Shown: positions 11,178 to 44,919 of the stretch, in pieces
How the letters are laid out: the number at the start of each line of letters is the position of its first letter
Numbering within the stretch: the stretch's first letter is position 1
Assembly (NCBI GenBank): GCA_003158735.1
Contig: PMLB01000182.1
Location: 30,479 to 85,032 of the forward strand
DNA length: 54,554 nucleotides
DNA from: Myxococcales bacterium
Lineage (GTDB): Bacteria > Myxococcota_A > Polyangia > Fen-1088
Direction of reading: 5' to 3'
The notes under the pieces: model-generated
Databases searched by the model: none
Seen by the model: only the letters and a program-made list of their open reading frames with translations
What the model was told of the DNA's origin: nothing
Translations under genes and position numbers: made by a program

Positions 11178-11282
11178 GGGCGACCGCTGGTCGCCCCTAC
11201 CTGGGAACGCTCCCTTTCTGGGGTAGGGGCGACCTGCGGTCGCCCCGAACGTGATGCCAGGGCGACCGCTGGTCGCCCCTAC
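11178..11282. repeat. Cluster of three REP palindromes
   Basis: GGGCGACCGCTGGTCGCCCCTAC (11178-11200), GTAGGGGCGACCTGCGGTCGCCCC (11223-11246) and GGGCGACCGCTGGTCGCCCCTAC (11260-11282). Together they fill the gap between two kinase operons. Confidence 0.9.
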
Positions 11283-15915: not shown

Positions 15916-15923
15916 GTCCCGCC

Positions 15924-18353: not shown

Positions 18354-18452
18354 TGCCCTTGGCCCCCTTGGTTGTTTCGGCAGCGAGACACGAAAAGTGG
18401 AGCCATGCTTGCCGAAGTGCGTCGCAAGCGTCCATGTCTCCGGCGCGCCAGT

Positions 18453-18730
18453 GGGCGACCGCAGGTCGCCCCCTCTTGGGGCATAGGTGCTAACCACGAT
18501 TCTCTCGGGACTTGACGGCCGCTGGCGCCATCCGGAGTCTCACCACAGAGGCCACAGAGGCCACAGAGGCCGGAAGGAAAGGGTTCCGGATCCGGCTCCG
18601 AACCCTTCTCTCCTTCCGATCCGTCTCTGTGAACTCTGTGCTCTCTGTGGTGAAATCCGAGGCAAACCTGCGGGAAACTGTGGTTAGCACCTATGCCCCC
18701 CCTGGGGGGGGGCGACCTGCGGTCGCCCCC
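18453..18730. repeat. 278-bp nested-palindrome (MITE-like) intergenic element
   Basis: Roughly 45-bp terminal inverted repeats: GGGCGACCGCAGGTCGCCCCC..GGGGCATAGGTGCTAACCAC (18453-18497) and its reverse complement (18680-18730). Each arm contains a REP palindrome. The core has 3x tandem CACAGAGGC (18544-18570) mirrored by CTCTGTG repeats (18626-18650) around GGTTCCGGATCCGGCTCCGAACC. Confidence 0.9.
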
Positions 18731-18845: not shown

Positions 18846-20024
18846 ATGGGACAGACTGCGAATACCTTGAAGCGAGTCCTGTTCGTGGACGACGATCCCA
18901 ACGTCCTCACTGGGCTTCGCAATGTTCTGCGCACCAAGCGCCACGAATGGGACATGGTCTTCGCCATTGGCCCGGACGAGGCGCTGGCCAAAGTAGCCGA
19001 AGGGCCTTTCGACGTCGTGGTCAGTGACATGCGCATGCCCCGCATGGATGGCGCGACTTTGCTTGCCAAGATCAAGCAGCTACAGCCTCGTGCCGTGCGT
19101 ATGATTCTTTCGGGCCAGACCGAGCTTGAGAGCGTGATGAAGTCTGTGTTCATCGCTCACATGTTTCTGTCCAAACCCTGCGATCCGGCCTTGTTGCAGC
19201 AGGTGGTCGATCGGGCGTGCCGCCTGCAGGCCATTCTGAACAGCGATGAATTGCGTGCCAGCGCCGGCAAGGTCGAAATGCTTCCGGCTGCGCCCAAAAC
19301 CTACGTCGCGCTCAATGAGGCGTTGATGGCGGCCAATTGCAGTGTCGCTGTTGTTGCCCGGATCATCGAGCACGACGTCGGCCTGTGCGCGAAGCTCCTG
19401 CAACTGGTGAACTCGGCCTTCTTCGGACTACCAAGAAGGATCTCCTCGTTGGGCGAGACCGTCACCTACCTCGGGATCGTGACCATCAAGAATCTCGCCC
19501 TGGCCCTCGAGACCTTCTCCACCGCAGCCGGAGGATCCGGGCTTTCGGAAGCGGCCCTGCTGGCCCTGCAGAACCACTCGCTTCTGACCGGGCAGATTGC
19601 GCGGCAAATTGAGGCAAAGGATCCCAAGAAGGCGGAAGAGGCCTTTCTGGCCGGCGTGCTGCACGAGGTGGGCTGGTTGGTGAAGGTCAAGGATCCGCCT
19701 CCTGTCAAGCCCGTTGATCGCACACTTCTGGGCGCCTATCTCCTTGGCCTGTGGGGATTGCCCCACCCCATTATGGAGGCCGTCGCCTACCACAAGGAGC
19801 CGCGCCTGCTTGCCCATTCCACGGCGGAGTTGGTGGACATCATCTACGTCGCTGACCACCTGGCCTACGAAATGGGAGGCAGCCAGACGGCCGAGCAGAA
19901 GCTGGATCTCGCCTATCTCGCCGGCATCGGCATCGACGAAGCCCAGCTTTCAGGAATGCGCGCAGTGGCGACGGCGGTTGCCAAGACGACAATGGACGAT
20001 GCCAGCGAGGACCGACATGCCTGA
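18846..20024 (+). CDS. Response regulator with HDOD output domain (REC-HDOD)
   Basis: RpfG-style receiver (VLFVDDDPNVL...VVSDMRMPRMDG...LSKPC). The HDOD-like region is IIEHDVGLCAKLLQLVNSAFFGLPRRISSLGETVTYLGIVTIKNLALAL...AGVLHEVG. Confidence 0.8.
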   Translation: MGQTANTLKRVLFVDDDPNVLTGLRNVLRTKRHEWDMVFAIGPDEALAKVAEGPFDVVVSDMRMPRMDGATLLAKIKQLQPRAVRMILSGQTELESVMKSVFIAHMFLSKPCDPALLQQVVDRACRLQAILNSDELRASAGKVEMLPAAPKTYVALNEALMAANCSVAVVARIIEHDVGLCAKLLQLVNSAFFGLPRRISSLGETVTYLGIVTIKNLALALETFSTAAGGSGLSEAALLALQNHSLLTGQIARQIEAKDPKKAEEAFLAGVLHEVGWLVKVKDPPPVKPVDRTLLGAYLLGLWGLPHPIMEAVAYHKEPRLLAHSTAELVDIIYVADHLAYEMGGSQTAEQKLDLAYLAGIGIDEAQLSGMRAVATAVAKTTMDDASEDRHA

Positions 20025-21198
20025 GCAAACCCATATCCTGTGTGTTGACGATGAGCCCAGAGTGCTGGAAGGACTGGTGTTGAACCTGCGCCGGTACTAT
20101 CGGGTTTCGACCGCGATCAATGGCCAGAAGGGATTGGCCATCATCGACGGAGACGATCCGCCTGCTGTGGTGGTGTCGGACATGCGCATGCCGGAGATGG
20201 ATGGCGCGGCTTTCTTGAGCCAAGTCAAGCAGCGTTCGCCCGACACCGTGCGGATCTTGCTCACCGGACAGGCCGACCTCGACTCCGCGATCGCGGCGGT
20301 CAACCACGGGCAGGTCTTTCGATTTCTGACCAAGCCCTGCGGTCCCCAGATCTTTCTTTCCGCCATTCAGGCCGGAGTTGACCAACATCGGCTGATCACC
20401 GCCGAGAGAGAGTTGCTGGAAAAGACCCTGCGCGGAAGCATCAAGGCGCTCACCGAGATTCTATCTCTCACCAACCCGCTTGCCTTTGGGCGGGCGATGC
20501 GCCTCAAGGGCCAGGCGTCGGATCTGGTGGCTGGTCTCGGCGTGCCGCTCACCTGGCAGATCGAGGTGGCGGTCATGCTGTCGCAGATCGGCTGCGTCAC
20601 CCTTCCGGCCGCAACCAATGAAAAGCTGTACTACGGCAAGCCGCTCAATGCCGAGGAAACTGAGCTGACCCAACGTCTACCGGCCTTGTCTCTCCAGCTT
20701 CTGGAAAGCATTCCGCGGCTTGAGGCGGTGCGGGCCATCTTGCAGGCGCAGGACCAGAATTTCGACGGCTCGGGCGCGGCACACAGTGCTGTGCAGGGCG
20801 AGTCGATCCCTTTGGGCGCTCGCATTCTCAGGCTCGTCCTCGACTATGACACGCTTGAGGCGGCAGGCAGCGATCCCGCTCTCGCCATCGGTACCTTGCA
20901 GGGCCGAAAAGGCCGCTACGATCCAAAACTGCTAGAAGTCTTGGCGCGCCTGAAGAGCAAGACGGTCACGCAGGGGCTGAGTGAGGTCGGACTGGCGGCG
21001 GTGCGGCCTGGGATGTTCTTGGTCCAGGACGTGATGTCGACCACGGGCCTGCTGCTGGTGGCTCGTGGCCACGAAGTGACGCAAGGGCTTTTGTACCGTC
21101 TTCGCAATATGGCTTCGGGCAGCATACGGGAGCCGCTGGTGGTCTTTGCTCCCGCGGAACCAAAGAGAAGCACGCTGATAGGGCGAAGCGCAGTGTGA
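20017..21198 (+). CDS. Response regulator with degenerate HD-GYP-like domain (REC-HD-GYP*)
   Basis: The ATG at 20017 overlaps the upstream stop by 8 nt (ATGCCTGA). The listed longer ORF from 19714 is an out-of-context extension. Receiver: ILCVDDEPRVL...VVSDMRMPEMDG...ILLTGQADL...FRFLTKPC. The output domain aligns by eye with HD-GYP but the catalytic motifs are replaced (see findings). Confidence 0.75.
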   Translation: MPEQTHILCVDDEPRVLEGLVLNLRRYYRVSTAINGQKGLAIIDGDDPPAVVVSDMRMPEMDGAAFLSQVKQRSPDTVRILLTGQADLDSAIAAVNHGQVFRFLTKPCGPQIFLSAIQAGVDQHRLITAERELLEKTLRGSIKALTEILSLTNPLAFGRAMRLKGQASDLVAGLGVPLTWQIEVAVMLSQIGCVTLPAATNEKLYYGKPLNAEETELTQRLPALSLQLLESIPRLEAVRAILQAQDQNFDGSGAAHSAVQGESIPLGARILRLVLDYDTLEAAGSDPALAIGTLQGRKGRYDPKLLEVLARLKSKTVTQGLSEVGLAAVRPGMFLVQDVMSTTGLLLVARGHEVTQGLLYRLRNMASGSIREPLVVFAPAEPKRSTLIGRSAV

Positions 21199-21226: not shown

Positions 21227-22630
21227 ATGCTTCATCGGTTGCTCCAACCGCAATTGCGTCAACTTGGGCTAGACGAAGAAACGCCGCCAAGCAAAGAAGC
21301 TTGGCAGGCGCTGCTCGATCAGATTGGCCGTGCCTACCAGGCCATCGAACGCGAGCGGGACCTGGCTGAGGACTCGGCCAAACTCGCATCGCGCGAGGTT
21401 CAGGAACTGAACACAAAGCTGTCCCGGGAACACGAGAAGTTTACAAGTGTTCTGCGGGCTACACCGGTCGGACTGGCCATCGCTGACTGGGAAGGCCGCT
21501 TCTTTGAGAGCAATAGGGCGCTCGAAGACATCATCGGGTTCTCGGCGCAGGAAACACTTGCCAAGTTTCTTTGGGAGTTCATGCCAGCCGAGGAAGTGGC
21601 AGCCACCCAGGGAGTGTGCAAGGAATTGATCTCGAGAAGGCTGTCGACAAATCGGGAACAGCGTCGGCTGATCGCCAAGGATGGACATGTTGTGCATGCC
21701 GACGTTGGGCTGACGGCGGTTCGGGACGATGAAGGAAGAGCGGCGTTCCTGATCGCAAGCTTCGTGGATGTCACCGCGCAAAACCAACTCGAAGTTGAAC
21801 TGCGCCATTCCCAGAAACTGGAGTCTATCGGCCAGCTGGCGGCTGGGATCGCACACGAGATCAATACGCCGATTCAGTTTATCGGGGACAACGTCAATTT
21901 TCTATCGGGCGCATTCGAACAACTCATCGCGCTGTGTGACAGCTACCGAACAGCATGCGCAAAGGCGGCCAGCGCCCCCCTGTCCGCAGAAGACCTCGCA
22001 GGGTTGAAGCGGGAGGAAGAAACGGCCGACCTCGAGTATATCCGGACGAATGTTGTCACCTCAATTGCCTCGACCCTGGACGGCGTCGGCCGGGTTGCGC
22101 GGATCGTGCAGTCCATGAAGGCTTTCTCCCATCCGGATCGCGGCGAGCGCGCCACGTCCGATCTGAACGCGGCATTGCGCGACACCCTGACAGTGGCCAC
22201 CAACGAGCTCAAGTACGTGGCCACGGTGGAGACGGATCTTGGAAAGATTCCGGCGATACCGTGCTTTGTGAGCGATCTCAACCAGGTCTTCCTGAACCTG
22301 CTGGTCAATGCCGCCCATGCCATTGGCGACGTGGTCGGCAAGACTGGACAGCGTGGTGTCATTCGGGTACGCACCTACCTGGAAGGAAGCGTGGTGGTCA
22401 TTGCCATCAGCGACACGGGCACCGGGATCCCCGAGGCCGTGCAAGGAAAGGTATTCGATCCGTTCTTCACCACCAAGGAGGTCGGCAAAGGCACAGGACA
22501 GGGGCTGACACTGGCACGCGCGGTGGTGGTCGACCGGCATGGTGGTTCGCTGACTTTCGAAACCGCGATGGGCAAGGGCACGACCTTCTTCGTTCGCATT
22601 CCGTTCGACTTTACTGAGGTCCAGGACTGA
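21227..22630 (+). CDS. Cytoplasmic PAS sensor histidine kinase, HEINTP-type core (fourth member of the family)
   Basis: Starts with an LLQPQLRQLGL linker-like motif, then a coiled coil and one PAS domain. H-box [18 protein letters not shown]. HATPase_c region: NLLVNAAHA, DTGTGIP, GTGQGLTLA. Confidence 0.85.
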   Translation: MLHRLLQPQLRQLGLDEETPPSKEAWQALLDQIGRAYQAIERERDLAEDSAKLASREVQELNTKLSREHEKFTSVLRATPVGLAIADWEGRFFESNRALEDIIGFSAQETLAKFLWEFMPAEEVAATQGVCKELISRRLSTNREQRRLIAKDGHVVHADVGLTAVRDDEGRAAFLIASFVDVTAQNQLEVELRHSQKLESIGQLAAGIAHEINTPIQFIGDNVNFLSGAFEQLIALCDSYRTACAKAASAPLSAEDLAGLKREEETADLEYIRTNVVTSIASTLDGVGRVARIVQSMKAFSHPDRGERATSDLNAALRDTLTVATNELKYVATVETDLGKIPAIPCFVSDLNQVFLNLLVNAAHAIGDVVGKTGQRGVIRVRTYLEGSVVVIAISDTGTGIPEAVQGKVFDPFFTTKEVGKGTGQGLTLARAVVVDRHGGSLTFETAMGKGTTFFVRIPFDFTEVQD

Positions 22631-22648: not shown

Positions 22649-24955
22649 ATGGAGCGAGACTTGTATCGACACTTGTGGTCGGCTGCCGTACTAGCGGCAA
22701 GCATTCTGATCGCAGATGTAGCGGCGGCGAGGGGCGCGATTGCGGAGACGCCCAATGAAGCGGCGGCGGCCCCGGCCGAGGGGATGGCTGCGGCCAGCGT
22801 GCTACCTGCGGACGCCGGTGTGACTGATACGATTCCACCTGCCCCGGCCGGGGGGATGGCCACGCCCAATGCGCCATCTTCGGATGCCGGTGCGGCTGGC
22901 GCGATTGCGCCGGCCCCGGCGCAGGAAACGGCAGCTGCCACCGCGCCACCGGCAGGGGCGGCAACCGTGACCTCAGCCTCGCCCGAGGCGAGGAGTGCAT
23001 TCGATGACCTTTCGCTCTCGCAACTGCTCGACGTCAGCGTGGTATCGAGCAAACGTGCCGAATCGATCGCCGATGCCCCGTCATCGGTCACTGTCATCAC
23101 AGCGGACAAAATCGCCGCCTTCGGTTTGAGGACGCTCAATGACGTTCTTCAGTTGGTGCCCGGCTTTGACGTGCGTCGTTCCCGTCAGCAGCTCCAACTC
23201 ATAACCGTCCGCGGTGTCACCAGCGATCTCAACGAGCGCTTGCTCATCATGATCGATGGCGTGCGGCTCGGCAGTCTCAATGACGGTGGCACGGGCAAGA
23301 CAGTGCGGGCGATCAGCCTGATAGACGTGGAACGCATTGAGATCATCCGCGGTCCCGGCTCCGCGCTCTACGGCACCAATGCGTTTGTCGCCGTGGTCAG
23401 CGTTATTACCAAGAAGGGCTCGGAGACAGGCGGGGTACACGTCACCGGAGAGGCTGGATCCTATGCCACCAGGGCCGCGGACGTGACAGCCGGCCAGAAG
23501 TTCGGCGACTTCAACCTCAACGGTCACTTCGGCTACGCAGAAAGCCGGGGTGAGAACTTCTTCATCGCGCAGGACGGTGCCGGCGTGTCTGGCAACACAC
23601 GCGATCCCTACAAGGAGTTTGTAGGCAATCTCAAGCTCGGGTACAAGGACATGCTCCAACTGAACGTCAGCGGCGCCCATCAGGTGAACTCACAGTTCAT
23701 CACGGTTGGCGACGTCTTGGACCCGAACAGCAGTGAGAAGGCGACATGGTTGGTCACCAGCCTCGATTACCGCCAAGCCTTCAGCAAGGCTCTGAAATGG
23801 CAAACCCAGCTCAATTTCGCCTACATGGACTGGGGCCCCATCACCGCCTTGATCTGGCCTGCGGGAATGAAGCCTCCGTACCCCGATGGCATGTACGGGC
23901 ACCCCCATTCCAGGGACTTCCGCTATGGCCTCGACACCTACGTCAACTATGAGCCGATCCACGACCTGAGCCTCATTGCGGGTGCAGCGGCCGAACTCAT
24001 TACCACGGACGACGATGACCACGTTTCCAACGGTCCGGACGCCACGGGCGTACCCGCCACGAAGTTCTACAACAACCCAGGCCGCTACGTGCTGGCCGCC
24101 TATGCGCAGGGTGACTATAGATTCGTCAGAGGGCTGAAGCTCACCGCCGGCGTACGCCACGACCAATACAACGACTTCGGCGGAACCACCAATCCCAGGG
24201 TGGCCCTGGTGTACAACTACCAGGACAAGGTCTGGGCCAAGGCCCTGTTTGCGACGGCGTTCCGAGCGCCGACCTATCGCGAGCTGTGGTCCCAGAACAA
24301 CCCAGCGGTCAACGGCGACCCGAACAACAAGGCCGAGACCATCATGACCGAAGAGCTCGTGCTCGGCGTCGCTCCGTGGCGTCAGCTGACTGCGACGGTC
24401 AGCTTGTTCAACAGCAACGTCAAGAACATGATCTACGCAGCCCAAACAACCCCTGGCGTCATCCTGTACGAGAACAGGGGAACTCTCGCCGCTCGCGGCG
24501 TCGAGGCGGAGGCCAGATCGCAAGTTCTTCCGGGCTTGGAGCTCGCCGGCAACTACACGTATGTCTACGCTGAGAACACGGTTTTCGGTAACACCTACTC
24601 CGCGCCGATGGTCTCACGGCACTCTGCCAACTTCACCATTTCACGCGACCTTTACCATCACCTGCGCCTCTCCCTGCTCGGCGAGTACAGAAGCGCCAAG
24701 GCTCGCTACGTGGTGGCTGGTGACCCCAAGTCCGACCCGCGCGCGCCCGTTGGCGAGGTGTTCTTGATCGGTGCGTTCGCAAAGATCTACGATATCGCCG
24801 AAGGCGTGGCAGGTTATGTCAGGGTGTCGAACATCCTGGACGCCCAGTACCAGACGCCGTCCACTTATCCGGCCAAGGTCCCCGGCGTCATCCCCGACGA
24901 CATTCACAACCGCGGCTTCGAGGTCCAAGTCGGACTTACCTACAGCTTCCGGTAG
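22649..24955 (+). CDS. TonB-dependent outer-membrane receptor 1
   Basis: Signal peptide, then a ~100-aa Ala/Pro-rich linker. The plug follows (LSLSQLLDVSVVSSKRAESIADAPSSVTVITADKI...LNDVLQLVPGF...VRGV...IEIIRGPGSALYG). A long beta-barrel ends ..VGLTYSFR. It starts only 18 nt after the kinase stop. Confidence 0.88.
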   Translation: MERDLYRHLWSAAVLAASILIADVAAARGAIAETPNEAAAAPAEGMAAASVLPADAGVTDTIPPAPAGGMATPNAPSSDAGAAGAIAPAPAQETAAATAPPAGAATVTSASPEARSAFDDLSLSQLLDVSVVSSKRAESIADAPSSVTVITADKIAAFGLRTLNDVLQLVPGFDVRRSRQQLQLITVRGVTSDLNERLLIMIDGVRLGSLNDGGTGKTVRAISLIDVERIEIIRGPGSALYGTNAFVAVVSVITKKGSETGGVHVTGEAGSYATRAADVTAGQKFGDFNLNGHFGYAESRGENFFIAQDGAGVSGNTRDPYKEFVGNLKLGYKDMLQLNVSGAHQVNSQFITVGDVLDPNSSEKATWLVTSLDYRQAFSKALKWQTQLNFAYMDWGPITALIWPAGMKPPYPDGMYGHPHSRDFRYGLDTYVNYEPIHDLSLIAGAAAELITTDDDDHVSNGPDATGVPATKFYNNPGRYVLAAYAQGDYRFVRGLKLTAGVRHDQYNDFGGTTNPRVALVYNYQDKVWAKALFATAFRAPTYRELWSQNNPAVNGDPNNKAETIMTEELVLGVAPWRQLTATVSLFNSNVKNMIYAAQTTPGVILYENRGTLAARGVEAEARSQVLPGLELAGNYTYVYAENTVFGNTYSAPMVSRHSANFTISRDLYHHLRLSLLGEYRSAKARYVVAGDPKSDPRAPVGEVFLIGAFAKIYDIAEGVAGYVRVSNILDAQYQTPSTYPAKVPGVIPDDIHNRGFEVQVGLTYSFR

Positions 24956-25100
24956 AGATTCAGGACGCTCAAGTATCGACTTCACTCGGACCCGTACGAC
25001 AGCGGAGTATCGAGCTTTCCCTAATGTTTCACCCGGGTTTGGCCGATGCCTAGGTCTATGCGTGCGCAGAGTCTTGACGGACCTGACCGCCGCGTCGGGC

Positions 25101-25472
25101 ATGGGACCTTCGTTGCTCGACGCCTCGATGTATGACGCCACCGTCGCGCTTGCGCTGGCTGCCCTCAAGGCGTCGGTGGGCCTGAGCGACCCGAGCACGG
25201 TGACCGGCGCGCAGGTTCAACAGGCGCTTAGCCAAATCAACGACCCGAATGGAACGATAGTGCGCACGGGTACCGAGGCATTCAAGCAGGCGATTCCCCT
25301 GATCTCGGCGGGCGCCGCCATCAACTACGACGGAGCTTCCGGCCCGGTCGATTTCGATTCCAGCGGCAACATCTTCCAGAACCTCAGCCTATACCAGGGG
25401 CAGGCCGGCGCCTTTGTCGATGTTCAGAAATTCGACTGCGTCACCAGCCCCAGTTGCCTGGCTTTGCCGTAG
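25101..25472 (+). pseudogene. Remnant: C-terminal ~120 aa of a type-I (LivK/Peripla_BP_6-like) periplasmic solute-binding protein
   Basis: SLLDASMYDATVALALAALKA...VTGAQVQQALSQINDPNGTIVRTGTEAFKQAIPLISAGAAINYDGASGPVDFDSSGNI resembles the C-terminal lobe of Leu/Ile/Val-type binding proteins. There is no signal peptide or N-terminal lobe, and upstream in-frame sequence is non-protein-like. GC3-rich codon usage is retained. Confidence 0.5.
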
Positions 25473-25537
25473 CGGGCAGCTTTCTCGCAACGATCGGGCC
25501 TCCACCCTACTGCAGGAGACGATAGCGGGAGCAGAGC

Positions 25538-27724
25538 ATGAAAAACCACAGGACACGCTGGATCGCGATGGCTTCGATCTGTTGCTTTCTTCCCGTGTCC
25601 GCGTTTGCTCAGGAAGGCCCACCGGCCGCAAACTCGTCGCCGCAGGATCTCGAGAATCTGAGTCTGGAGGACTTGTTCAACGTCGTGGTGGTGACCGCCA
25701 GCGCCGGAGTCAAGGAGAGCAGCACGATGGCTCCGGCCAACGTGCAGTCGATCAGCGCGGACGAAATCGCTTTGCACGGATGGCGCTCGCTTTCCGAGGT
25801 GCTGTCCAACGTCCTCGGCCTGTACGTCATCGGCGACTTGGTCCAGCCATCGGTCGGCGTGCGCGGGGTGACGGGCGGCTACGGTGCGGGAACCCGCATC
25901 CTCAAGATCATGATCGACGGGACCGAGGTGACCTTCCGCCCCAGCTTGTCGGCGGCCATTGGTCCCGAGTACATTTCCATGGAGGCAGTCGATCACATTG
26001 AGGTGGCGAAAGGACCGCTGTCCGCGCTGTACGGCGCCAATGCGTTCTTGGCAACTGTCAATGTCATCACGCGCGACGCCTCGCGCGGGCTCTCGGCCAG
26101 TGCAGCGTTGCGCGGCGTAGTTCAGCAGGAGGCGCTGGGAGGCGGCCTTTCCGGCATGGTCAGCTATTCCAATCAGCGTCATAGCGCCCTGGTCGCGGTG
26201 AGCGCGGACCGAATAGACCGATCCGGGCTTTCCATCCGGCCGACCTTCAGCCAGAACCCGTCCCTGCCCCGCTACTCGGTGCTGTTTGGCCGCGAGAGCA
26301 GCAACGATCTTGCGCGTCCCATCGGGGTCTTCGCCAAGTATTCCTACACGGCCCCTTCGCTGGGCACGCTCTTCACCGAGGGTGGCCTGCAACAGAGCGA
26401 TGCCTACGGCGAGTTCCAGCCGAACTCGGTGTTCACCGGCCGCAGCCGATACCAGCTGCGCAACTACTGGTGGGCAGGCCGCTTCGACCACGCCTGGAAC
26501 TCGGCGATCGACTCCTCCCTGCATGCAGGCCTGTCCAGCGGCGCACCGACCAACAATGAGCAACTCTTTCTCACCGGCGCGAATGATAGCTACTACACCA
26601 GGAGGTTTTCCTATCTTGCCGGCGACGCCGCGCTTTCGCTCAATGCCAGGCTGGGCAAGAGGGTTATGATCACCGCAGGGGGCGACTTCAACTGCGAGCA
26701 CGATCACGTGCTGTATTTCGGCCAGACCTACCTAGCCAAGGTCGGAGCAATCCAGGCCGGAATTACCCTGGACCAGACGCAGCCGGGGGACCGGACCCAG
26801 GTCGATCTGCGAAACCTGGGCGCCCGCGTGCAGCTCACCGCCAATCCGCTCTCAGATCCCGAGAGGCTCAAGCTGTCGGGCAATTTTCGCCTGGATTTCC
26901 CCAATCTCTTCCCCACGCAGTATAGCTGGCGCGCTGCCGCGGCGTATCGCTGGACCTCCAGCCTGGTGAGCAAGCTGATTGTCGGTCGGGCGTTTCAGGC
27001 GCCGTCAGCTGTGCTGATGTTTGCCATTCCGGGCTTCGGAGCGGCCGCGAATATTGTTGGGAGCCAGAGGATGAGCAACGTGGCGCCGCTGGTGCCGCAG
27101 ACCATCCAGAGCGCGGAATTGGTCACGAGCTACGGCCTTGGCAAGCGAGCAGCGATCGAGCTGGCGATCTTTGTGCAGCAAGTGGACAGCGAGATCGAGT
27201 TCGTTCAGCTCAGCGGGAACTTCGTGCCCGTCAACCGGGGCCAGCAGCGGGGAATCGGCTTGGAAGCGAGCTTCCGCTCGCACCTTGGCATTGCCTCGCC
27301 CTACCTGCAGGGCGCGCTGAGCTGGACGACACTTGAGGATCCGGCAAGTCCGGCTCAGGGGCACCTGTCGCTGACGCCGCCGGCGCTCTACCCGGCAGTG
27401 AGCGGGACTGGGGGAATGAACCTGGACCTGTCGAAGTACTTCTTGCGCGGCAACGCGCAAGTGAGAGTGGTCGGCGCGCGCAGCGCTTCGCAAAGCAACA
27501 TCTTGCTCAACAGCAACAGTAGATATGAGCTGGCCCCCTACGCGATGATCGACGCTGCGCTGTCGAGCGCTGGTCTGTACCTGTTGGGTGCAAAGCGGGA
27601 GACCAGGTTCACGCTCTCGCTGCGCAATCTCCTGGGAACGCTGGTATCGGATCCCGGCTTCGTCGGATTCGATATTCCGCTGCCGGGCAGGACCGTGCTG
27701 CTCGAGATTCGCCAGTCCCTGTAA
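25538..27724 (+). CDS. TonB-dependent outer-membrane receptor 2
   Basis: Signal peptide (ASICCFLPVSAFAQE), then LENLSLEDLFNVVVVTASAGVKESSTMAPANVQSISADEI...LSEVLSNVLGLYV...VRGV...IEVAKGPLSALYG, then a barrel. Confidence 0.85.
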   Translation: MKNHRTRWIAMASICCFLPVSAFAQEGPPAANSSPQDLENLSLEDLFNVVVVTASAGVKESSTMAPANVQSISADEIALHGWRSLSEVLSNVLGLYVIGDLVQPSVGVRGVTGGYGAGTRILKIMIDGTEVTFRPSLSAAIGPEYISMEAVDHIEVAKGPLSALYGANAFLATVNVITRDASRGLSASAALRGVVQQEALGGGLSGMVSYSNQRHSALVAVSADRIDRSGLSIRPTFSQNPSLPRYSVLFGRESSNDLARPIGVFAKYSYTAPSLGTLFTEGGLQQSDAYGEFQPNSVFTGRSRYQLRNYWWAGRFDHAWNSAIDSSLHAGLSSGAPTNNEQLFLTGANDSYYTRRFSYLAGDAALSLNARLGKRVMITAGGDFNCEHDHVLYFGQTYLAKVGAIQAGITLDQTQPGDRTQVDLRNLGARVQLTANPLSDPERLKLSGNFRLDFPNLFPTQYSWRAAAAYRWTSSLVSKLIVGRAFQAPSAVLMFAIPGFGAAANIVGSQRMSNVAPLVPQTIQSAELVTSYGLGKRAAIELAIFVQQVDSEIEFVQLSGNFVPVNRGQQRGIGLEASFRSHLGIASPYLQGALSWTTLEDPASPAQGHLSLTPPALYPAVSGTGGMNLDLSKYFLRGNAQVRVVGARSASQSNILLNSNSRYELAPYAMIDAALSSAGLYLLGAKRETRFTLSLRNLLGTLVSDPGFVGFDIPLPGRTVLLEIRQSL

Positions 27725-28768
27725 CTACTCCAGCGCCTTGTCGATGTGCTTGAGGGCATCGGGACGCAGGCCGAAGTTGGCGCGAACCAACTTGACGTCG
27801 ACCACGGTCTTCACCGAAAGAGGCAGCTCCACGGGATGTGTCTCCACCTGCCAGTCGTTTTCCGATAGCTCGAACAAGAGATTGGCAGCCTGCAAGCCCA
27901 ATGCCTCGTGATCGGGCACAACCGCCAGCGTTCCCAGGGGAGAGCTGGGCTCGACCAGATTGGGCACGCCCACAATTAGTGGCAGTTTGGCGTCGCCCAG
28001 TTCCTTGCGCCACGCATCGTCGATAAATTCCGCGTCGCGAACTAGGCCATTGTCATTGAGCATCCAGACGGCGTCGACCTTGCTGCGCTCCGCAAGGTTG
28101 TGCAGGGCTTCACGCAGCCCAGCCGCTGTCACATCGTTGGGCACCGACACGGCAATGAGCTCGACGTGTTCCATGGCCGCCAAGGACTTCTGCCGTTCCA
28201 CGAAGCTGCGGAATGCCGGGCGATAGATGACCCCCACGCGGTTGATCGGGGCACTAATCACCGATCGAAGCTGCACAAAGGCGGTGACGCCAGGAACCTC
28301 ATAGGCGATGCCGGTTGACCGCCGAAGTTGGGCCTGCACTTCTTCCACCAGCGAGGCCATCAAGAGGACCGCCGGGGGCATGGCAGTGGCCGGATTGGCG
28401 GTCTGGTACTGGCGATACAGGTTCATGGTGGCGTTGTTCATCAGCACTACACACACCGGACCGGCGCTTCGGATGGCTGAGGCGAGATCTGCAACGGTGG
28501 TTCCCGGGCCTACGGTGAGAGTGTGGATGTTGAAGTTCTTTTGCACCTCCGATACCAGGCTCTTGCGGACTTCGACGAAGTTTGCTGAGTTCGGCATGGC
28601 AATGAGGAGAGCAGGCGCGCCGCTGCGTGCGGGCGGATCGACAATGGTAGGCAGGCCGGATGTGGCCGCGCCAGGCTCATTGCCGGTTGTGGCGCAGCCG
28701 GCAATAGACAGGAGGAGAGCCATCGACAGCGATGCCGCTCTCCAGTCAATGGTTCTGTGGGCAGTCAT
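27725..28768 (-). CDS. Lipoprotein, ABC_sub_bind (COG2984/PF04392-like) periplasmic binding protein with no cognate transporter
   Basis: Lipobox LLLSIAGC. Family-like blocks: TGIAYEVPGVTAFVQLRSV..INRVGVIYRP, VDAVWMLNDNGLV, LPLIVGVPNLVEPSSPLGTLAVVPDHEALGLQAANLL. The ATG overlaps the upstream stop (ATGA). Family assignment is by eye. Confidence 0.6.
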   Translation of the reverse strand: MTAHRTIDWRAASLSMALLLSIAGCATTGNEPGAATSGLPTIVDPPARSGAPALLIAMPNSANFVEVRKSLVSEVQKNFNIHTLTVGPGTTVADLASAIRSAGPVCVVLMNNATMNLYRQYQTANPATAMPPAVLLMASLVEEVQAQLRRSTGIAYEVPGVTAFVQLRSVISAPINRVGVIYRPAFRSFVERQKSLAAMEHVELIAVSVPNDVTAAGLREALHNLAERSKVDAVWMLNDNGLVRDAEFIDDAWRKELGDAKLPLIVGVPNLVEPSSPLGTLAVVPDHEALGLQAANLLFELSENDWQVETHPVELPLSVKTVVDVKLVRANFGLRPDALKHIDKALE

Positions 28769-29517
28769 TGGACACTCCAGGAGTCGATGCCCAAGAGGCG
28801 CTTGGTGGGCACGTCGAGATCTCGAAAGGATCTGACGACAAGTTCACGGACCGATGGATTCAATACCGCTACCGCAGGCAGACCCACTGGGCCACCCGGG
28901 AGTTGCTTGGTTTTGATGACAAGCCGAGTCCGTTCCAGCAGCCTGCCCAGCATGGAACTGGGAAGAACAATCCCATCGGCCGCGGAGAACTCGAGCAGGG
29001 GCAGCAGATCCTCGATCTTCGCCACTCGCTTGATCTTGATGTCCGTCGTTTTGAGCAGACCGTTGAGGAAAGTCTGCGTGCCATCGCGGCCGAGCAGGTC
29101 GACCACGCCGATGGTCTTTCCCGCCAATGAGCCATTCAAAGGCTGGTTGACCGAAGCAAGCACATACGGTTCGGCAGATCTTCCCCCGCGCTGCCCTTGC
29201 AGAAGCGCGGTTTTCCCGCGTTGTTCCAGCACCGGCGTAATGCTCAGCACCGCATCGGGATGGCCGTTGCTCAACCCTTCTTCAAAGTCCCGAAAGCGCC
29301 CGAACACGACAATGCCCAGTTCGGGCAAATGCTGCTGTAGTGTCTTCTCGACGGCGCTCGACTTGGCATCGAGCTGCAGAAAAACATGCACCACCGGCTT
29401 GCTGCCTTGGGCCAGTGCGGGTTGCGGCGGTTGACCCTGGTACGCCAGGCCCAGGCCAACCACAAGCCACGCGATAGTGCGCGGCAGCTGTTGGCGTCGG
29501 CTATATGAGTGTGTCAT
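28765..29517 (-). CDS. Periplasmic type-II (PhnD/PBP2-like) binding protein with no cognate transporter
   Basis: Signal peptide (TIAWLVVGLGLAYQG...ALAQG). A two-lobe PBP-like pattern follows (VVFGRFRDFEEGLSNGHPDAVL...SLAGKTIGVVDLLGRDGTQTFLNGLL...AADGIVLPSS). Assignment is tentative. Confidence 0.5.
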   Translation of the reverse strand: MTHSYSRRQQLPRTIAWLVVGLGLAYQGQPPQPALAQGSKPVVHVFLQLDAKSSAVEKTLQQHLPELGIVVFGRFRDFEEGLSNGHPDAVLSITPVLEQRGKTALLQGQRGGRSAEPYVLASVNQPLNGSLAGKTIGVVDLLGRDGTQTFLNGLLKTTDIKIKRVAKIEDLLPLLEFSAADGIVLPSSMLGRLLERTRLVIKTKQLPGGPVGLPAVAVLNPSVRELVVRSFRDLDVPTKRLLGIDSWSVQ

Positions 29518-29556
29518 CGGACTAGAGTGCCAGTATATCGCTGCTTCAGCGTCCTG

Positions 29557-31938
29557 CTAGAAATTGGCTGTCATGCGACCAAACACGCGTCTCCCTTCGG
29601 GCTTGAGAGTGCCGTTGACGTTTCCAGCATGTTCGCCGAAGGCTGGGAGATTCGGTTGTGCGTTCAGTAGATTCAGGGAGGAGATGCCGAATGAGATGGT
29701 ATTCCAGAATCTCTTTGTGCTGGCAGTGACGTCTACGAAGTAGGCGTCGGCCATCGCGTCGGCTCCGGCGAGCGTGGCGTAAGGGATTCCCGTGATCGAT
29801 CGCAGGTCAACGTTGATGTTGACGGTCTTCGCCACCACATATTCCGCGCCCACGAAGCTGGTCAACTCCGGGGCGAAGCGGAGCCTCTGTTGCGCATCGG
29901 CGGGCGGCGAAACACTCGTCGTAACGCCACCTACCGTGACCTCTCCGCGTACGGCACGGGCTCGGTTCCAGGAGCCGTTCCAGTAGAGCAAGAGCGGCGG
30001 GAGGACGCGATATTTGAAGTTCCATTCGAGTGCCCAGGTGCTGGAGTCTCCGACGTTCTCGAAGGTGTTGAAATTGATTCCTTGCGCGCGGTTGATGATG
30101 TTGGAAAGCGACTGGTAGGCCACCGTTACATCCGCCTGGATCTTCCTGCCCAGGCGACACATGGCTATCAGTTCGTGGGCTGAGGTAAATTCTGGGCGCA
30201 GGGATGGGTTGCCGAATTTCTCGTTGTAGGCCGGAGGTCTCTTGGTCGTGTTGTAGACGTACTTGAGGGTCGTCGAGCCGTGAGGGGTGTAGATGAGACC
30301 GAGGCGCGTCGCATTGACCAGCGTCTGCGAGTTCGAAGTCCAGGCATTGGCCGCTCCCAGTTGGCTGTTGTTGGCCTCGTCGCGGAGGTAGTCGAGCCGA
30401 CCCCCGGCGACGATGCTCACGTGATCGATGATCCCTGCGCTGACTTGGGCGAAGATGTTTCGAGTGTATGTTCTGTTGGACTGGTAAGGGGTGTCGAACC
30501 AGTTGATGGCGAAGTCGTCGTTGGCCCACTTGGTCGACATTCCGTTGTCGGTGTCTGTGAAACGACTCCAGAATTCGCCGCCGAGTGAGAAACGAACCCG
30601 TTCGCGCTCAAAAAGCGCGCCGTTTAGCTGTAGGCCAAGGTCATACTTGTTGTTTCGCGCTCCTGCAACGCCGTCCATCCACCATCCTGTCGCCGCTCCG
30701 TTGAAGTAGACGTACGGATCGAGTGCTTTGACGAACGACAGTCTTTGGGTGATTTCGTCGGTCGGAGCATGAAGCTCCAACCGCCAGCTGAAATCGGTCT
30801 CCCGATCAACAGGGTACGAGAACCCCCTGGCAGCCAGCGCATCTTCCATGCTTTGCGCATCGGTGAACCAGATGTGGGGTACCGGATGTGCCATCGACTC
30901 GTAGTAGAAGATGGCCTTGAGCGCCTTGTATTTGATGCGACTGGCGAGAATGTACGAAGGATCGATGCCGTTTGAGCGCCAAATCGGGCTGCTCTGGAAG
31001 GGAGCATCTGTCTGGGTATCGAATCCCTGTTGCTCATAGTGGAAACCAACGAAGAAGTTGTCATCCTTGCCGAGCTTCGCGCCGTACAAGACGTCCGTCG
31101 CTCGGCGGCCGTGGTCGCCCAGCTCGACGGTTGCCTCGCCGCCGTCCAGATCGTCGCGCAAGTTGTAGTTGACGAGTCCGGCCGAGGCATCGCGTCCCCA
31201 GGTGAGTCCGCTCGGACCGCGGGCGACCTCTAGCGACTGGAACAGGCGAGGCGCAAACACCGTGTGCCCATGGTCCTTGAAGGGCATGAGCTCAAGGCTT
31301 TGGCCGAATCTCCACGCCGAATATAGTCCGCGGGAAAGTGCGCCGTACTGGCCATACTGATCGATGTTGTAATAGGAATACCCGGGCGTTCGCTGCAGAG
31401 TTTCCAGAATGCCACGGGTTCCCCAGCGATTGAGCTCCTCGCGGGTGACTGTGTACACGGACATCGGTGCCTGCCGAGCATCCTCACGCATCTTTGAGAC
31501 GCCTGAAACCTCGGGCACGCGAATCGCCAAGAGATCAGCCAGCGACAGCTGGGCAAGGTCGTCGGAGATCGGCTGAACGCTAGCCCAAGGGGGCTCCGCG
31601 CCTGGAGCATCCTGGTCAGCCGGCTGGGTTGAGGGGCCAGCACTTTGCGAGGCCTGGGATGGGAGGGCCTCCGGGGAGGACTGAGGTGCGGCCGCCTCAG
31701 CGGCTTCGCTGGCGCTTGGCGCTGCCCCGGTGTCCGTCTGGAAACCAGCATCGCGAGAAGGCTGAACTGCAGTCTTTTCGGCAGGTCTGATCTTACCAGC
31801 GCCTGGCACTGCCCCGGTGTCCATCTGACCTTCGGGACCAGAGACCTCGCCAGCAAGAGCAAATTGCGACACGAGACTTGCAGGCCCGAACGCCACGCAA
31901 ACAGCTATGAGATGGAACCTGGTCGGTCGCGGTCCCAT
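29557..31938 (-). CDS. TonB-dependent outer-membrane receptor 3
   Basis: I chose the ATG at 31938 (MGPRPTRFHLIAVCVAFGPASLVSQFALAGE signal peptide). The listed start at 32010 adds non-signal residues. A ~130-aa low-complexity linker is followed by LAQLSLADLLAIRVPEVSGVSKMREDARQAPMSVYTVTREEL and then a barrel ending ..GRMTANF (terminal Phe). Confidence 0.85.
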   Translation of the reverse strand: MGPRPTRFHLIAVCVAFGPASLVSQFALAGEVSGPEGQMDTGAVPGAGKIRPAEKTAVQPSRDAGFQTDTGAAPSASEAAEAAAPQSSPEALPSQASQSAGPSTQPADQDAPGAEPPWASVQPISDDLAQLSLADLLAIRVPEVSGVSKMREDARQAPMSVYTVTREELNRWGTRGILETLQRTPGYSYYNIDQYGQYGALSRGLYSAWRFGQSLELMPFKDHGHTVFAPRLFQSLEVARGPSGLTWGRDASAGLVNYNLRDDLDGGEATVELGDHGRRATDVLYGAKLGKDDNFFVGFHYEQQGFDTQTDAPFQSSPIWRSNGIDPSYILASRIKYKALKAIFYYESMAHPVPHIWFTDAQSMEDALAARGFSYPVDRETDFSWRLELHAPTDEITQRLSFVKALDPYVYFNGAATGWWMDGVAGARNNKYDLGLQLNGALFERERVRFSLGGEFWSRFTDTDNGMSTKWANDDFAINWFDTPYQSNRTYTRNIFAQVSAGIIDHVSIVAGGRLDYLRDEANNSQLGAANAWTSNSQTLVNATRLGLIYTPHGSTTLKYVYNTTKRPPAYNEKFGNPSLRPEFTSAHELIAMCRLGRKIQADVTVAYQSLSNIINRAQGINFNTFENVGDSSTWALEWNFKYRVLPPLLLYWNGSWNRARAVRGEVTVGGVTTSVSPPADAQQRLRFAPELTSFVGAEYVVAKTVNINVDLRSITGIPYATLAGADAMADAYFVDVTASTKRFWNTISFGISSLNLLNAQPNLPAFGEHAGNVNGTLKPEGRRVFGRMTANF

Positions 31939-32066
31939 TGGATACTCCCGGGTTGTGGATTGCCAGCGTCCCAAATCAGCGCCTCCCGCCCTGTTCCGGG
32001 CGCAAACCATGCGCGATCAGACGACCCTACCGCGACTTGCGCTTTCTTTTCTCGAACCGAACATCG

Positions 32067-32417
32067 TCACTTGCGCCCCATGGCTTGAGTATCCGGTGCT
32101 ACCAACTCGGCATCGCATGGAGCGTGGATCGAAGTTGGCTGTTTCTCACAAAGGCCACAGAGAACGCGGAGCCGGATGAGAAAGGGCTCCAGCAAGACGG
32201 CCATCGAGAATTCAAACACGTTCTGCCCCGGCACGTGGCGGTCGATCACCTGCACGCCCGGTTTCCGGTCGGCCTTCACGACGATGGCGAGCTGTTTCCA
32301 ATCGTCGGCGCCCCCGGCTGCCCCTTGCCGCGTGGCGAAGCCCCAAGCCTTGTGCTCCTCGTCGAGGAAGAGTCCGTAGACCAGCTGCTTGTCTTCTTCC
32401 AGCGTGCGTTCCTGCAA
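32067..32417 (-). CDS. Hypothetical small protein, possibly 3-prime-disrupted by a repeat element
   Basis: The first ~80 codons have the GC3-rich usage of real genes here (MQERTLEEDKQLVYGLFLDEEHKAWGFATRQ...). The last ~35 codons run through the CACAGAG-type repeat (..RVLCGLCEK..). No recognisable family. Confidence 0.3.
   Translation of the reverse strand: MQERTLEEDKQLVYGLFLDEEHKAWGFATRQGAAGGADDWKQLAIVVKADRKPGVQVIDRHVPGQNVFEFSMAVLLEPFLIRLRVLCGLCEKQPTSIHAPCDAELVAPDTQAMGRK
32147..32192. repeat. Truncated solo copy of the core of the 18.5-kb nested-palindrome element
   Basis: CACAAAGGCCACAGAG..GGAGCCGGAT.AGAAAGGG against CACAGAGGCCACAGAGGCCGGAAGGAAAGGG in the full element. Confidence 0.6.
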
Positions 32418-33024: not shown

Positions 33025-33405
33025 ATGAGCAAAAAGGCCGTACTCATAGTGGACGACTCCCTGACGGTTCGGCAACAGGTCTCCCTGACGCTGAAGTCGG
33101 CGGGGTACCAGATCGTCGAGGCTTGTGACGGACGGGAGGGCGTGGATGCCTTGCGCGCGCATGCAGAAATCGCCATGGTCTTGTGCGACATCAACATGCC
33201 CCGCATGAACGGTCTCGAATTCCTCGAAGCCATCAAGGGCGACGCGGCTGGGCTGCCCTTGCCCGTCATCATGCTGACCACGGAAGGATCGCCTGACCTC
33301 ATCACCCGGGCCAAGCGCGCCGGGGCCAAGGGCTGGATCGTGAAGCCCTTCCAGACCGATCTTCTTCTCGCAGCCGTGCGCCGCATCGCGGGCGAGCCAG
33401 GCTGA
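33025..33405 (+). CDS. cheY: Chemotaxis response regulator CheY
   Basis: 126-aa single receiver: VLIVDDSLTVRQQV...VLCDINMPRMNGLEFL...VIMLTTEG...GAKGWIVKPF. Confidence 0.85.
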   Translation: MSKKAVLIVDDSLTVRQQVSLTLKSAGYQIVEACDGREGVDALRAHAEIAMVLCDINMPRMNGLEFLEAIKGDAAGLPLPVIMLTTEGSPDLITRAKRAGAKGWIVKPFQTDLLLAAVRRIAGEPG

Positions 33406-37959: not shown

Positions 37960-39993
37960 CTAGAAGTCACGAAAAGCGGGATCACCATCAAGTGGAATGA
38001 CATTTTCCGGCTTGACCGTCGCAGGGCGACCGTTGCCCCCGTTGGGGCGCGCGGCCTTGGTCAGCGTCGGGACGTCCACTCGGGCGCGGGTCGGAACGCC
38101 ACGGATGCGCGCGAGCCGGAAACTGCTGACCATGGCGGCCACTTCTTCCGCTTGACTCGAAAGCTCCACGGCTGCGGCCGATGACTCCTCGGAATTGGCC
38201 GCATTCTGCTGCGTGACCTTGTTCATGTCCGCCACCGCTCGGTTGATCCGATCCACCCCCGCCGATTGCTCCTTCGCCGAAGCTGAGATCTCGTTCACGA
38301 TTCCACTCACCTTCTCGATGCCCTCCAGGATCTCGGTCAGCTTGCCCGCCATCTTCTGCGACGTCACTTCGCCCTCGCCCGCCTGGCGGACCGATTCCTT
38401 GATCAGCTCCTCGGTCTTCATCGCCGCTTCCTTTGAGCGCAAGGCCAGGCTGCGCACCTCTTCCGCCACCACGGCGAAGGCGCGTCCGGCCTCGCCGGCC
38501 CGCGCTGCCTCGACCGCGGCGTTGAGGGCCAGCAGGTTGGTCTGGAAGGCGATTTCGTTGATGTCTCTGATGATCTGCGAGGTCCCCTCGGCCGAAGACT
38601 TGATCTTGGTCATGGCCACCGACATCTGCTCGACCGCGCTGGTGCCGCTCATGGCCGCCTTCTTCGCGGTCTGGGCCAGGGCATTGGCCTGAACCGCGTT
38701 GTCCGAGGTTCGCTTGGACATGGCGCTCATGGATTCAAGCGCGGACGAAGTTTCTTCGAGCGAGCTGGCCTGTTGCGAGGCACCGTCGGCCACGATCTGA
38801 CTGGACGAGGCGATCTGGCCCGCCGCCGCCGAGACCTGGTCCACCGCACTGGACACCTGGGCCAGCGCTTCGTGCAAAGCCTCGGCGGTCTGGTTGACGG
38901 ATTCCTTGATGCGGGCGTGGTCGCCCGGATACTCGCCCTTCACTCGGGCGCACAGGTCGCGCTGCGCGAGCTGGTCGAGCACGCTGCGGGCCTCGCTCAT
39001 GGGCGCCACCATGGCGTCGAGCGTGCGATTCACGCCCTCCACGATCTTGCGGAACTCGCCCGCGTGGCAGGACGCATCCACCCTGACCGAGAGCTGTCCT
39101 TCGAGGGCCGACTGAACCAGCTTGTCCAGGTCAGTCACCACCGTGCACAAGTTGTTGCGCAGCCGATCCAGCTTTTCGTTGATGACCACCTGGGTTCCAG
39201 GCAGCTTCTCCATCACCGGAGCGAAGTCGCCCTCGGCGTAGCTGGTCAGGATGTCCAGAATGGTGAGAATCGTCCTGACCTTGGTTCGCACGATCTCGTT
39301 CACCCGGTGTGCGAGATCGCGATAGGCGCCGGCGAATTCCTCTTCATTGATTAAGGCGTCGATGAACCCGGCCTTCTGGGCCTCGTAGAGGTGGGCCGAG
39401 CGGGCCAGCACGGCGTTGAGGGCGTCGATGCAGGCGTTGAGGTTGTTCTTGAGGGTATTGAAGTCGCCGTTGTAGTTGTCGGAGATCTTGGGGGGGATGT
39501 CGCCCTTGGCGATGCGGTCGAAGCAATCGGCCGCCATGTGCAGCGGTTCGACCACGGCATCGAGCACGCGGTTGAAGCCAGTCATTACACCGGCGAACTC
39601 GAAGTGCACCTGCTTGGTGTCAGCGCGGAAGTCAAGTTCACCGCCCACGGTGGCCGCGACCAGGCGTTCCGCCTCGCCCTGTAGGCCTTGAATCGCGCGG
39701 CGGGTGCTACGATAGGCGAGCCATCCCAAGAGCGTCGCCAAGAGTACATCAATGCCCACGAGAATCTGGCTGGTCGGGATGGCCGAGTCGGCGGTGGTGA
39801 CGTCGGCCCTTGCCTTGGCCGACGGATCGAGGGCGGTGGCCGTGCGGTCAGCGGCTTCACGCAACAGGACCCGGTTGGATTGCTCAGCCTGGCGCTGCTT
39901 GGCCGAACTGTACGCCACCAATCCAACGTTCATAACCACGATCGCGGCCAGTGCCACCATCGCGTTGACACCTATCTTCGTCTTGGCAAACAT
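37960..39993 (-). CDS. mcp: Methyl-accepting chemotaxis protein with minimal periplasmic loop and poly-HAMP array
   Basis: Two TM segments flank a ~47-aa loop. About five HAMP-like repeats follow. The conserved signalling hairpin is [38 protein letters not shown]. The protein ends ..DGDPAFRDF. Confidence 0.9.
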
Positions 39994-44079: not shown

Positions 44080-44112
44080 GAAGAGAATCTCCTTAATCGG
44101 GTATCGACACGT

Positions 44113-44810: not shown

Positions 44811-44892
44811 TGCTTTACTCCGGTTGCGGCTTGACTCGTTCTCTTCACCCTATTCACGCTGAGGATTCATGATTCCGGCCCCTGTAGTTACG

Positions 44893-44919
44893 ATCATCGG
44901 TGGGAAGTAATCGCATCTA
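44893..44919 (-). promoter_or_regulatory. Candidate sigma28-type promoter for fliS-fliD-che operon
   Basis: The minus strand reads TAGATGCG-N11-CCGATGAT against TAAAGTTT-N11-GCCGATAA. It shares the CCGATG core with the 18753 candidate and lies just downstream of the fliC terminator hairpin. Confidence 0.3.

Follow-up and report, generated by a model that had tools for sequence, protein, structure and literature searches.

Two orphaned periplasmic binding proteins of a Myxococcales bacterium probably belong to a partly dismantled, TonB-dependent receptor-linked sensory module

The DNA analyzed here, called the window, is a 54,554-nucleotide stretch of a Myxococcales bacterium (contig PMLB01000182.1), and this report concerns three TonB-dependent receptor (TBDR) genes (TBDR1, TBDR2, and TBDR3) and two periplasmic binding-protein genes (P250 and P347) within it. 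The gene map (Table 1) was drawn from open reading frame (ORF) lists and Pfam scans across the 54-kb window, and the genes described in a first-pass annotation of the same DNA are present where it placed them. The plus-strand genes from the REC-HDOD response regulator to TBDR2 are tightly spaced or overlapping. This string opens with two response regulators, and TBDR1 lies behind a histidine kinase as annotated, separated from it by an 18-nt spacer that on direct reading contains GGGGAGG. On the opposite strand, the P347 ATG overlaps the P250 stop codon as ATGA, which confirms the overlap reported before, and TBDR2 and P347 end in directly adjoining stop codons, with zero spacer. Operon boundaries are inferred from spacing because promoter and terminator scans gave counts at or under chance expectation. 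TBDR1 to TBDR3, P250, P347, the CheX-like gene, and the REC126 gene are intact, and a Peripla_BP_6-type gene and a receptor-kinase gene are present as relics. The remainder of the 54 kb contains more histidine kinases, a Che cluster, and flagellar genes. The window had been described as devoid of ATP-binding cassette (ABC), TonB/ExbBD, sigma/anti-sigma, and catabolic genes, and none was found among the ORFs scanned, three of which have no Pfam match at all.

The relics were compared with a relative, L004, that carries both genes intact. Window 25077-25466 corresponds to residues 349-478 of the 479-residue Peripla_BP_6/ANF_receptor-type protein of L004 with 88% amino acid identity, so the binding-protein relic recognized in the first-pass annotation is real. 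The intact gene is located directly upstream of the TBDR2 orthologue in relatives, and comparison with contigs L013 and L087 shows that its truncation is a clean 1205-bp deletion. The first-pass annotation missed the kinase-gene relic at 32197-32411, and it missed the conserved receptor beside P250-P347 in relatives. A tblastn search aligns this 215-bp segment with residues 69-159 of the 741-residue L004 membrane kinase at 59% identity, and it matches the sensor-domain hidden Markov model (HMM) at 4.7e-23. Nucleotide alignment shows that it is flanked on both sides by non-homologous sequence. L004 and the window are 86.6% identical in nucleotide sequence over about 7 kb (25076-32090), with synteny broken by two blocks absent from the window. 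The first block (about 1.9 kb) spans REC-GGDEF plus the 5' part of the kinase gene, and the second (about 1.8 kb) contains the remainder of the kinase. Two deletions thus removed REC-GGDEF and left only 215 bp of the receptor-kinase gene, and the truncated Peripla_BP_6 gene reflects a third. The binding proteins are orphaned because their cognate receptor was deleted. Recent gene loss, and not design, thus made them orphans.

Table 1. Features of the TBDR and binding-protein region of the window.
Feature	Coordinates	Strand	Evidence or remark
REC-HDOD response regulator	18846..20024	+	Pfam Response_reg 1.4e-18, HDOD 2.2e-36; opens plus-strand gene string
REC-HD_5 (HD-GYP-type) response regulator	20017..21198, start probably 20017	+	Response_reg 1e-18, HD_5 2.5e-28
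PAS histidine kinase	21227..22630	+	Pfam PAS_4, HATPase_c
TBDR1	22649..24955	+	Plug (PF07715) 1.1e-23, barrel (PF00593) 7.8e-31
Peripla_BP_6/ANF_receptor-type gene relic	25077..25472	+	130 codons, C-terminal end only
TBDR2	25538..27724	+	Plug (PF07715) 3.7e-14
P347 lipoprotein, 347 aa	27725..28768	-	class I binding-protein fold, TrpX/ABC_sub_bind-like
P250 exported binding protein, 250 aa	28765..29517	-	class II fold, PhnD/PtxB/AioX-like
TBDR3	29557..31938	-	Plug (PF07715) 2.3e-7, OMP_b-brl_3 6.1e-8
Receptor-kinase relic	32197..32411, inside ORF 32067-32417	-	part of periplasmic sensor domain only
CheX-like protein, 179 aa	32467..33006	+	weak CheX match 1.2e-3 (2.7e-4 in L004)
REC126 single-domain response regulator	33025..33405	+	Response_reg 4.7e-27

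Fold prediction was required to classify P250 and P347 because Pfam, NCBIfam, and PDB sequence searches gave nothing usable. Neither protein has a Pfam match even at E<=10. P250 also has no NCBIfam match and no PDB sequence match, and none of its 120 listed homologues carries a Pfam domain. The P250 family comprises 473 clusters at 50% identity among 1.8 billion representatives, and by these searches it appears to be a family without an existing profile. The AlphaFold2 model of P250 (predicted local distance difference test, pLDDT, 85.5) has a class II periplasmic binding-protein fold. Its best Foldseek match is the phosphite/phosphonate binder PtxB (E 8.5e-12, template-modeling score about 0.6), and the other matches include AioX (6eu7, 4.7e-9), ArrX, BvgS VFT2, and XAC2383 (5ub7 and 5ub3, ~4e-9). 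P347 scores 5.4e-7 against NCBIfam TrpX, far under the cut-off, and PF04392 is carried by about 15 of its 120 listed homologues. The best fold matches of the P347 model (pLDDT 84.6) are the solved PF04392-type proteins 3lft (an L-Trp complex), 3lkv, and CD0873 (E 1e-13 to 1e-12), with LuxP and XylFII lower in the list. LivJ-type binders of aromatic acids were also matched in this search. Aromatic amino acids, from the TrpX/CD0873 matches, and aromatic acids, from the LivJ-type matches, are candidate ligands. The labels PhnD-like for P250 and ABC_sub_bind-like for P347 stand by structure but not by Pfam. P250 has an N-terminal hydrophobic helix followed by an ALA-Q site, as in a signal peptide, and P347 has an IAGC lipobox whose Cys25 is nearly invariant across the family. 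Both proteins are therefore predicted to be exported, as the first-pass annotation assumed. Fens and peat are the source of their homologues, which belong to uncultured Polyangia/Myxococcales.

About 30 loci were gathered and mapped with purpose-built profiles, giving 24 at the species level. In each of these 24, P347 follows P250. A receptor bearing the sensor domain directly adjoins the pair in about 17 of the 20 informative loci and in Pleionea, an adjacency of which the window retains the relic alone. At least four gene orders occur, in which the receptor gene precedes the pair within one operon, precedes it with an intervening TBDR gene, lies downstream in convergent orientation, or lies upstream in divergent orientation. 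Its product begins with a transmembrane (TM) segment, a periplasmic domain of ~150 residues, a second TM segment, and HAMP. HAMP is present in all 23 receptors compared, Hpt in 21, and HATPase_c in 20; the set includes five HisKA-HATPase-REC-Hpt hybrids and two methyl-accepting chemotaxis proteins (MCPs). One sensor domain is thus joined to three output types, a CheA-like kinase, a hybrid kinase, and a chemoreceptor, of which the CheA-like Hpt-HATPase form is the commonest. Receptor diversity was taken from the fetched loci because a word-indexed homologue search with the L086 kinase sensor region gave only 11 fragments. No Pfam model covers the sensor domain, and a profile search against PDB sequences was empty. 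The Pleionea homologue has a sub-threshold match to sCache_3_2 (4.4e-5), and the module sensor resembles a divergent single-Cache-like domain.

The same triad is found in a cultured gammaproteobacterium, Pleionea sp. CnH1-48 (sensor HMM 1.1e-31, P250-like 7.5e-51, P347-like 2.6e-72). The P250-like domain also forms the C-terminal part of Ser/Thr kinases in two relatives. A fusion locus (L089 7455-14641; P0318, P0360, and P0329) encodes a Pkinase-TPR-PEGA-P250 domain protein and a PEGA protein fusion, with a P347-like gene and a TBDR gene coming next. This one sensor domain retains two binding-protein neighbors while its outputs are swapped, a pattern typical of a functional input unit. The CheX-like gene of the window has orthologues (57-92% identity) beside the receptor kinase in L004, L006, L016, L020-L022, L040-L042, L085, and L086, and REC126 orthologues (63-94% identity) are in the same loci.

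An ordinary uptake function would have the TBDRs import a substrate that is passed to an ABC transporter encoded elsewhere, with the nearby signaling genes coincidental. P347 does resemble TrpX-type ABC binding proteins, and some homologues are annotated as 'ABC transport system substrate-binding protein'. The surroundings of the pair make this very improbable. Among 163 other neighboring ORFs of at least 170 residues, the commonest families are Response_reg, GGDEF, HATPase_c, FHA, Hpt, CheW, PAS, CheX, and PilZ. ABC families are missing from the full list for the second batch of loci and from the top 25 families of the first batch, an ABC-ATPase motif search of the neighborhoods found none, and the gene tables of L001-L007 and L085-L090 contain no permease or ATPase. 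The first-pass annotation had named displaced permease or ATPase genes in orthologous loci as the finding that would overturn its proposal; none was found within about 10 kb in the roughly 30 loci examined. Instead, the same receptor sensor domain accompanies the pair in two phyla, and a P250-like domain is fused directly to Ser/Thr kinases. Receptor linkage and the lack of ABC genes in related loci uphold the assignment of the binding proteins to a signaling rather than an uptake module.

The three TBDRs had been described as paralogues co-transcribed with kinases. All are TBDRs by their Plug domains, but they are distant family members because their mutual identity is 24-39%, mostly in the plug, which rules out a recent triplication. 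Of the three, TBDR1 alone follows a kinase. TBDR2 has no barrel match itself, and its 89%-identical L004 orthologue bears PF00593; TBDR3 is 88-93% identical in amino acids to an L004 orthologue that also bears PF00593. Gene callers start TBDR3 at different positions to give 635, 781, or 793 residues, and the 793-residue form has a good signal peptide. A low-complexity stretch of ~100 residues rich in Ala, Pro, Ser, and Gln separates the signal peptide from the plug in TBDR1 (residues ~30-115; 22649-23000) and TBDR3 (residues ~30-135; 31500-31850). This stretch occupies the site of the signaling domain in transducer-type TBDRs. A motif of the type LSLxxLL..V ahead of the plug is conserved in all three receptors. 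No STN domain match was found in the window TBDRs, whose N-terminal extensions are low-complexity Ala/Pro linkers, and a FecA-like transducer is excluded by the lack of an STN domain and of a sigma/anti-sigma pair in the window. TonB_C and ExbD genes are located ~9 kb from the module in L004.

The positions of the TBDR genes in relatives distinguish conserved from local linkages. A TBDR is present within 10 kb of the P250-P347 pair in 21 of 22 informative species-level loci. TBDR2-type receptors (28-43% identity) adjoin a Peripla_BP_6 gene in 12 species-level loci, and in relatives TBDR3 is located between the receptor kinase and P250. TBDR1 orthologues (69-83% identity) belong to the same module in three other species (L040-L042), where they are beside the CheX-like and REC126 genes and not behind a PAS kinase. 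The REC-HDOD gene has no counterpart there and lies outside the ancestral module. The PAS kinase was linked to TBDR1 in just two cases, the window and its nearest sister (L087), and given the position of the orthologues in the three other species, this linkage is a local, lineage-specific rearrangement. TBDR3 is 85% identical in nucleotides to its L086 counterpart although the flanks are 92-96% identical, and it is nearer to the otherwise more distant L004. This discordance suggests recombination or diversifying selection at the receptor.

The closest relatives with an intact kinase are L085 and L086. L085 (93% nucleotide identity) carries the full set, with PilZ, REC, CheX-like, and REC-GGDEF genes divergent from kinase-P250-P347 and TBDR2 convergent. 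L086 has the chemotaxis-side flank in common with the window (92% identity) and an intact kinase followed by TBDR3, and it is without REC-GGDEF. L086 and L087, which come from two samples, have the same 501-bp in-frame deletion in P250 with identical breakpoints. The Peripla_BP_6 gene of L087 is intact, 2111 bp of its TBDR1 are deleted, and the PAS-kinase 3' end is still upstream. Contig L013 matches the window at 100% identity along 14.4 kb but retains an intact Peripla_BP_6 gene for 479 residues (L013 14443-15981), and its identity falls to about 95% past the junction. Either the 1205-bp deletion is polymorphic in the population or L013 is a strain mosaic. At least five deletions in five different module genes fall within one narrow clade, a pattern that fits a module under relaxed selection after REC-GGDEF loss.

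The relics and deletions could in principle be metagenome assembly artefacts, as every compared sequence is a metagenome contig and the fall in L013 identity suggests strain mixing at that junction. We give this almost no credence. The window arrangement, including the kinase relic, recurs in eight independently assembled contigs from different samples, two NCBI metagenome-assembled genomes among them, and it is not an assembly error because these contigs share it. A chimeric assembly is ruled out on the same ground. The P250 deletion has the same breakpoints in both samples, the breakpoints are clean, and the kinase relic is diverged rather than chimeric.

The surviving genes were compared with those of relatives by the pairwise ratio of nonsynonymous to synonymous substitution rates (dN/dS). 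The values are 0.10-0.33, with 0.42 for the near-identical L086 TBDR2; P250 gave 0.11-0.29, P347 0.13-0.26, and REC126 0.10-0.22. They are slightly higher in the closest pairs and do not separate continued use from recent orphaning. The surviving genes are either still working, for example with an unlinked receptor, or awaiting decay. If they had been rewired, P250, P347, and the TBDRs would signal through an unlinked receptor with the same Cache-like sensor. The genes are intact with no sign of neutral drift, and the sensor is modular, occurring on kinases, hybrid kinases, and MCPs. We nevertheless consider rewiring unlikely. Only one P250 locus was returned per genome in 24 of 24 species-level genomes, and the sister lineages that are losing P250 or TBDR1 are a better fit to relaxed selection.

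The first-pass annotation proposed that a working outer-membrane-to-two-component pathway exists at this locus, in which the binding proteins dock on one of two neighboring kinases (11279-13516 and 13513-15927) and feed a network of receivers and flagellar genes. A periplasmic loop and a pair of TM segments are indeed present in both, and one kinase carries dCache_1 and HAMP. The locus adjoins chemotaxis and flagellar genes, and the binding proteins and TBDRs are intact with dN/dS of 0.11-0.29. However, with all filters off the window kinases score <=0.3 bits against the profile of the sensor that accompanies P250-P347 elsewhere, these kinases are never beside the pair in the more distant loci whose genes were mapped, and the true partner is present as a relic. 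Docking on these kinases is improbable. No hydrophobic segment was found in the PAS kinase next to TBDR1, and it has no predicted TM segment.

The histidine kinases of the window have similar catalytic cores. Those at 11279-13516, 13513-15927, 15924-18497, and 21227-22630 have sensor parts of dCache-HAMP, TM-PAS, REC-REC-PAS-PAS, and PAS, respectively. The cores of the first two are 90% identical over 282 residues, and the others are 55-78% identical; the core of the PAS kinase is 55-57% identical to those of the first two. Such similarity suggests that the catalytic half was recently duplicated or underwent gene conversion.

These data lead us to view the region as a partly dismantled copy of a sensory module conserved in Polyangia (Myxococcota), whose binding proteins were orphaned by receptor loss, with a probability of roughly 70%. 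The intact form in relatives has at least one TBDR in the outer membrane, usually of the TBDR2 type paired with a Peripla_BP_6 protein. Two dissimilar binding proteins, P250 and P347, expressed from overlapping genes, are in the periplasm. The inner membrane contains a TM-Cache-like-TM-HAMP receptor, most often a CheA-like Hpt-HATPase kinase, and the cytoplasm REC-GGDEF, a CheX-like protein, a single-domain REC protein, and PilZ. Ligand would cross the outer membrane through the TBDRs and be captured in the periplasm by P250, P347, and perhaps the Peripla_BP_6 protein. By docking on the Cache-like domain, the loaded binding proteins would switch the receptor in the manner of AioX-AioS and LuxP-LuxQ. 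The CheA-like kinase would then phosphorylate REC-GGDEF and REC126 to give a cyclic di-GMP (c-di-GMP) output, with the CheX-like protein as a candidate phosphatase and PilZ as a candidate c-di-GMP effector. A co-sensor role behind TBDRs, the core of the earlier proposal, has good support at the family level but does not hold for the window, which has lost the receptor. For the intact relatives, we tentatively suggest, at somewhat less than even odds, a previously undescribed three-tier pathway in which TBDRs admit the ligand and P250-like and P347-like proteins jointly control a single-Cache/HAMP receptor, present in Myxococcota and at least one gammaproteobacterium. A literature search of incomplete coverage found no description of this module, which is weak evidence of novelty.

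Several points weigh against the view of a dismantled module. Gene linkage and domain shuffling are the basis for proposing that P250 and P347 bind the receptor. The role of the TBDRs is suggested by co-location, and in the Pleionea locus none lies within 8 kb. The genome, of which the 54-kb window is our view, may encode another copy of the receptor elsewhere. The surviving binding-protein genes have no frameshifts and, at dN/dS of 0.11-0.29, may still function, so 'dismantled' may overstate their condition. The sister-lineage deletions are known from metagenome contigs.

Other features of the window were recorded in the same map. The REC-HD_5 gene encodes 393 residues as called in identical contigs. 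A near-complete flagellar set together with CheA/CheB/CheR and an MCP occupies 82-3905 and 42646-53954, and includes FlgD, FlgE, FliD, FliS, two flagellins, FlgK, FlgN, FlgI, FlgH, FlgA, FlgG, and FlgF. The relatives of the genome that carries this set are annotated as Polyangia/Myxococcales. Cultured Polyangia/Myxococcales move by gliding, not swimming. Flagellar genes are mentioned in papers on uncultured Myxococcota. The ORFs at 82-1860, 4202-5389, and 5420-6046 (592, 395, and 208 residues) are those without a Pfam match, and the first is directly upstream of flgD within a stretch of 69% GC. A 677-residue chemoreceptor at 37960-39993 has a poly-HAMP array (HAMP_2/HAMP_N3 repeats) and no recognized ligand-binding domain.

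Co-sensor binding proteins are known from few systems, mostly found singly, and here gene linkage defines a whole family. This family combines P250, which has no Pfam model, with P347, a divergent ABC_sub_bind protein, and an unannotated Cache-like sensor carried on three signaling outputs. If the pathway exists as suggested, a compound would be sensed by the TBDR-tied module of Polyangia only once it has been actively imported into the periplasm. Pleionea sp. CnH1-48 is a cultured host of one member and makes the idea testable, and natural single-component knock-outs (kinase, P250, TBDR1, and Peripla_BP_6) are available in the window and its sister lineages. The locus also carries a caution: an 'orphan' binding protein near kinases mimicked a new circuit, and relatives reveal a circuit minus its receptor.

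The co-sensor binding-protein systems AioX-AioS, LuxP-LuxQ, TorT-TorS, and XylFII-LytS have been reviewed (PMC8050422). AioX is a transporter-free co-sensor with a PhnD/Phosphonate-bd fold, and its kinase has a single-Cache-like periplasmic domain (PMC8050422). The likeness to the arsenite-sensing AioX-AioS-AioR system of Agrobacterium/Rhizobium NT-26 is that AioX is among the structural matches of P250 and that the module sensor appears to be a divergent sCache. In contrast to that system, P250 has no detectable sequence similarity to PF12974, the module always co-encodes a second, unrelated binding protein (P347), its kinase core is CheA-like (Hpt-HATPase) or varies between loci, and it has TBDRs and a Peripla_BP_6 protein. 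Its output is REC-GGDEF, whereas the AioR system uses a sigma-54 activator. LuxP-LuxQ, TorT-TorS, and XylFII-LytS are similar in that a class I binding protein without a transporter role docks on the periplasmic domain of a kinase. The structural matches of P347 include LuxP and XylFII, and the hybrid-kinase variants of the module (HAMP-HisKA-HATPase-REC-Hpt) have a TorS/LuxQ-type architecture. P347, however, is of the TrpX/PF04392 lineage and not of Peripla_BP_1/4, and the module differs from all three systems in having two binding proteins per receptor and linked TBDRs.

Two further kinds of system offer partial parallels. XAC2383 of Xanthomonas citri is reportedly a periplasmic PhnD-like receptor paired with the diguanylate cyclase XAC2382, and it resembles the module in linking a PhnD-like periplasmic protein to c-di-GMP signaling. 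XAC2383 contacts its membrane GGDEF partner directly, whereas the module would interpose a kinase or MCP before REC-GGDEF. FecA-type transducers and the SusC/D plus hybrid two-component systems of Bacteroides likewise couple a TonB-dependent outer-membrane protein genetically to signaling, and the Bacteroides BT1754 sensor has a binding-protein fold. Unlike the FecA type, the module has no STN domain and no sigma/anti-sigma pair; in contrast to SusC/D, scans of the loci revealed no SusD-like gene and the binding proteins are separate polypeptides. Binding-protein-dependent receptors are thus an established kind, from which this module differs by its two unrelated binding proteins, unannotated sensor, membrane-anchored CheA-like core, and TBDR linkage.

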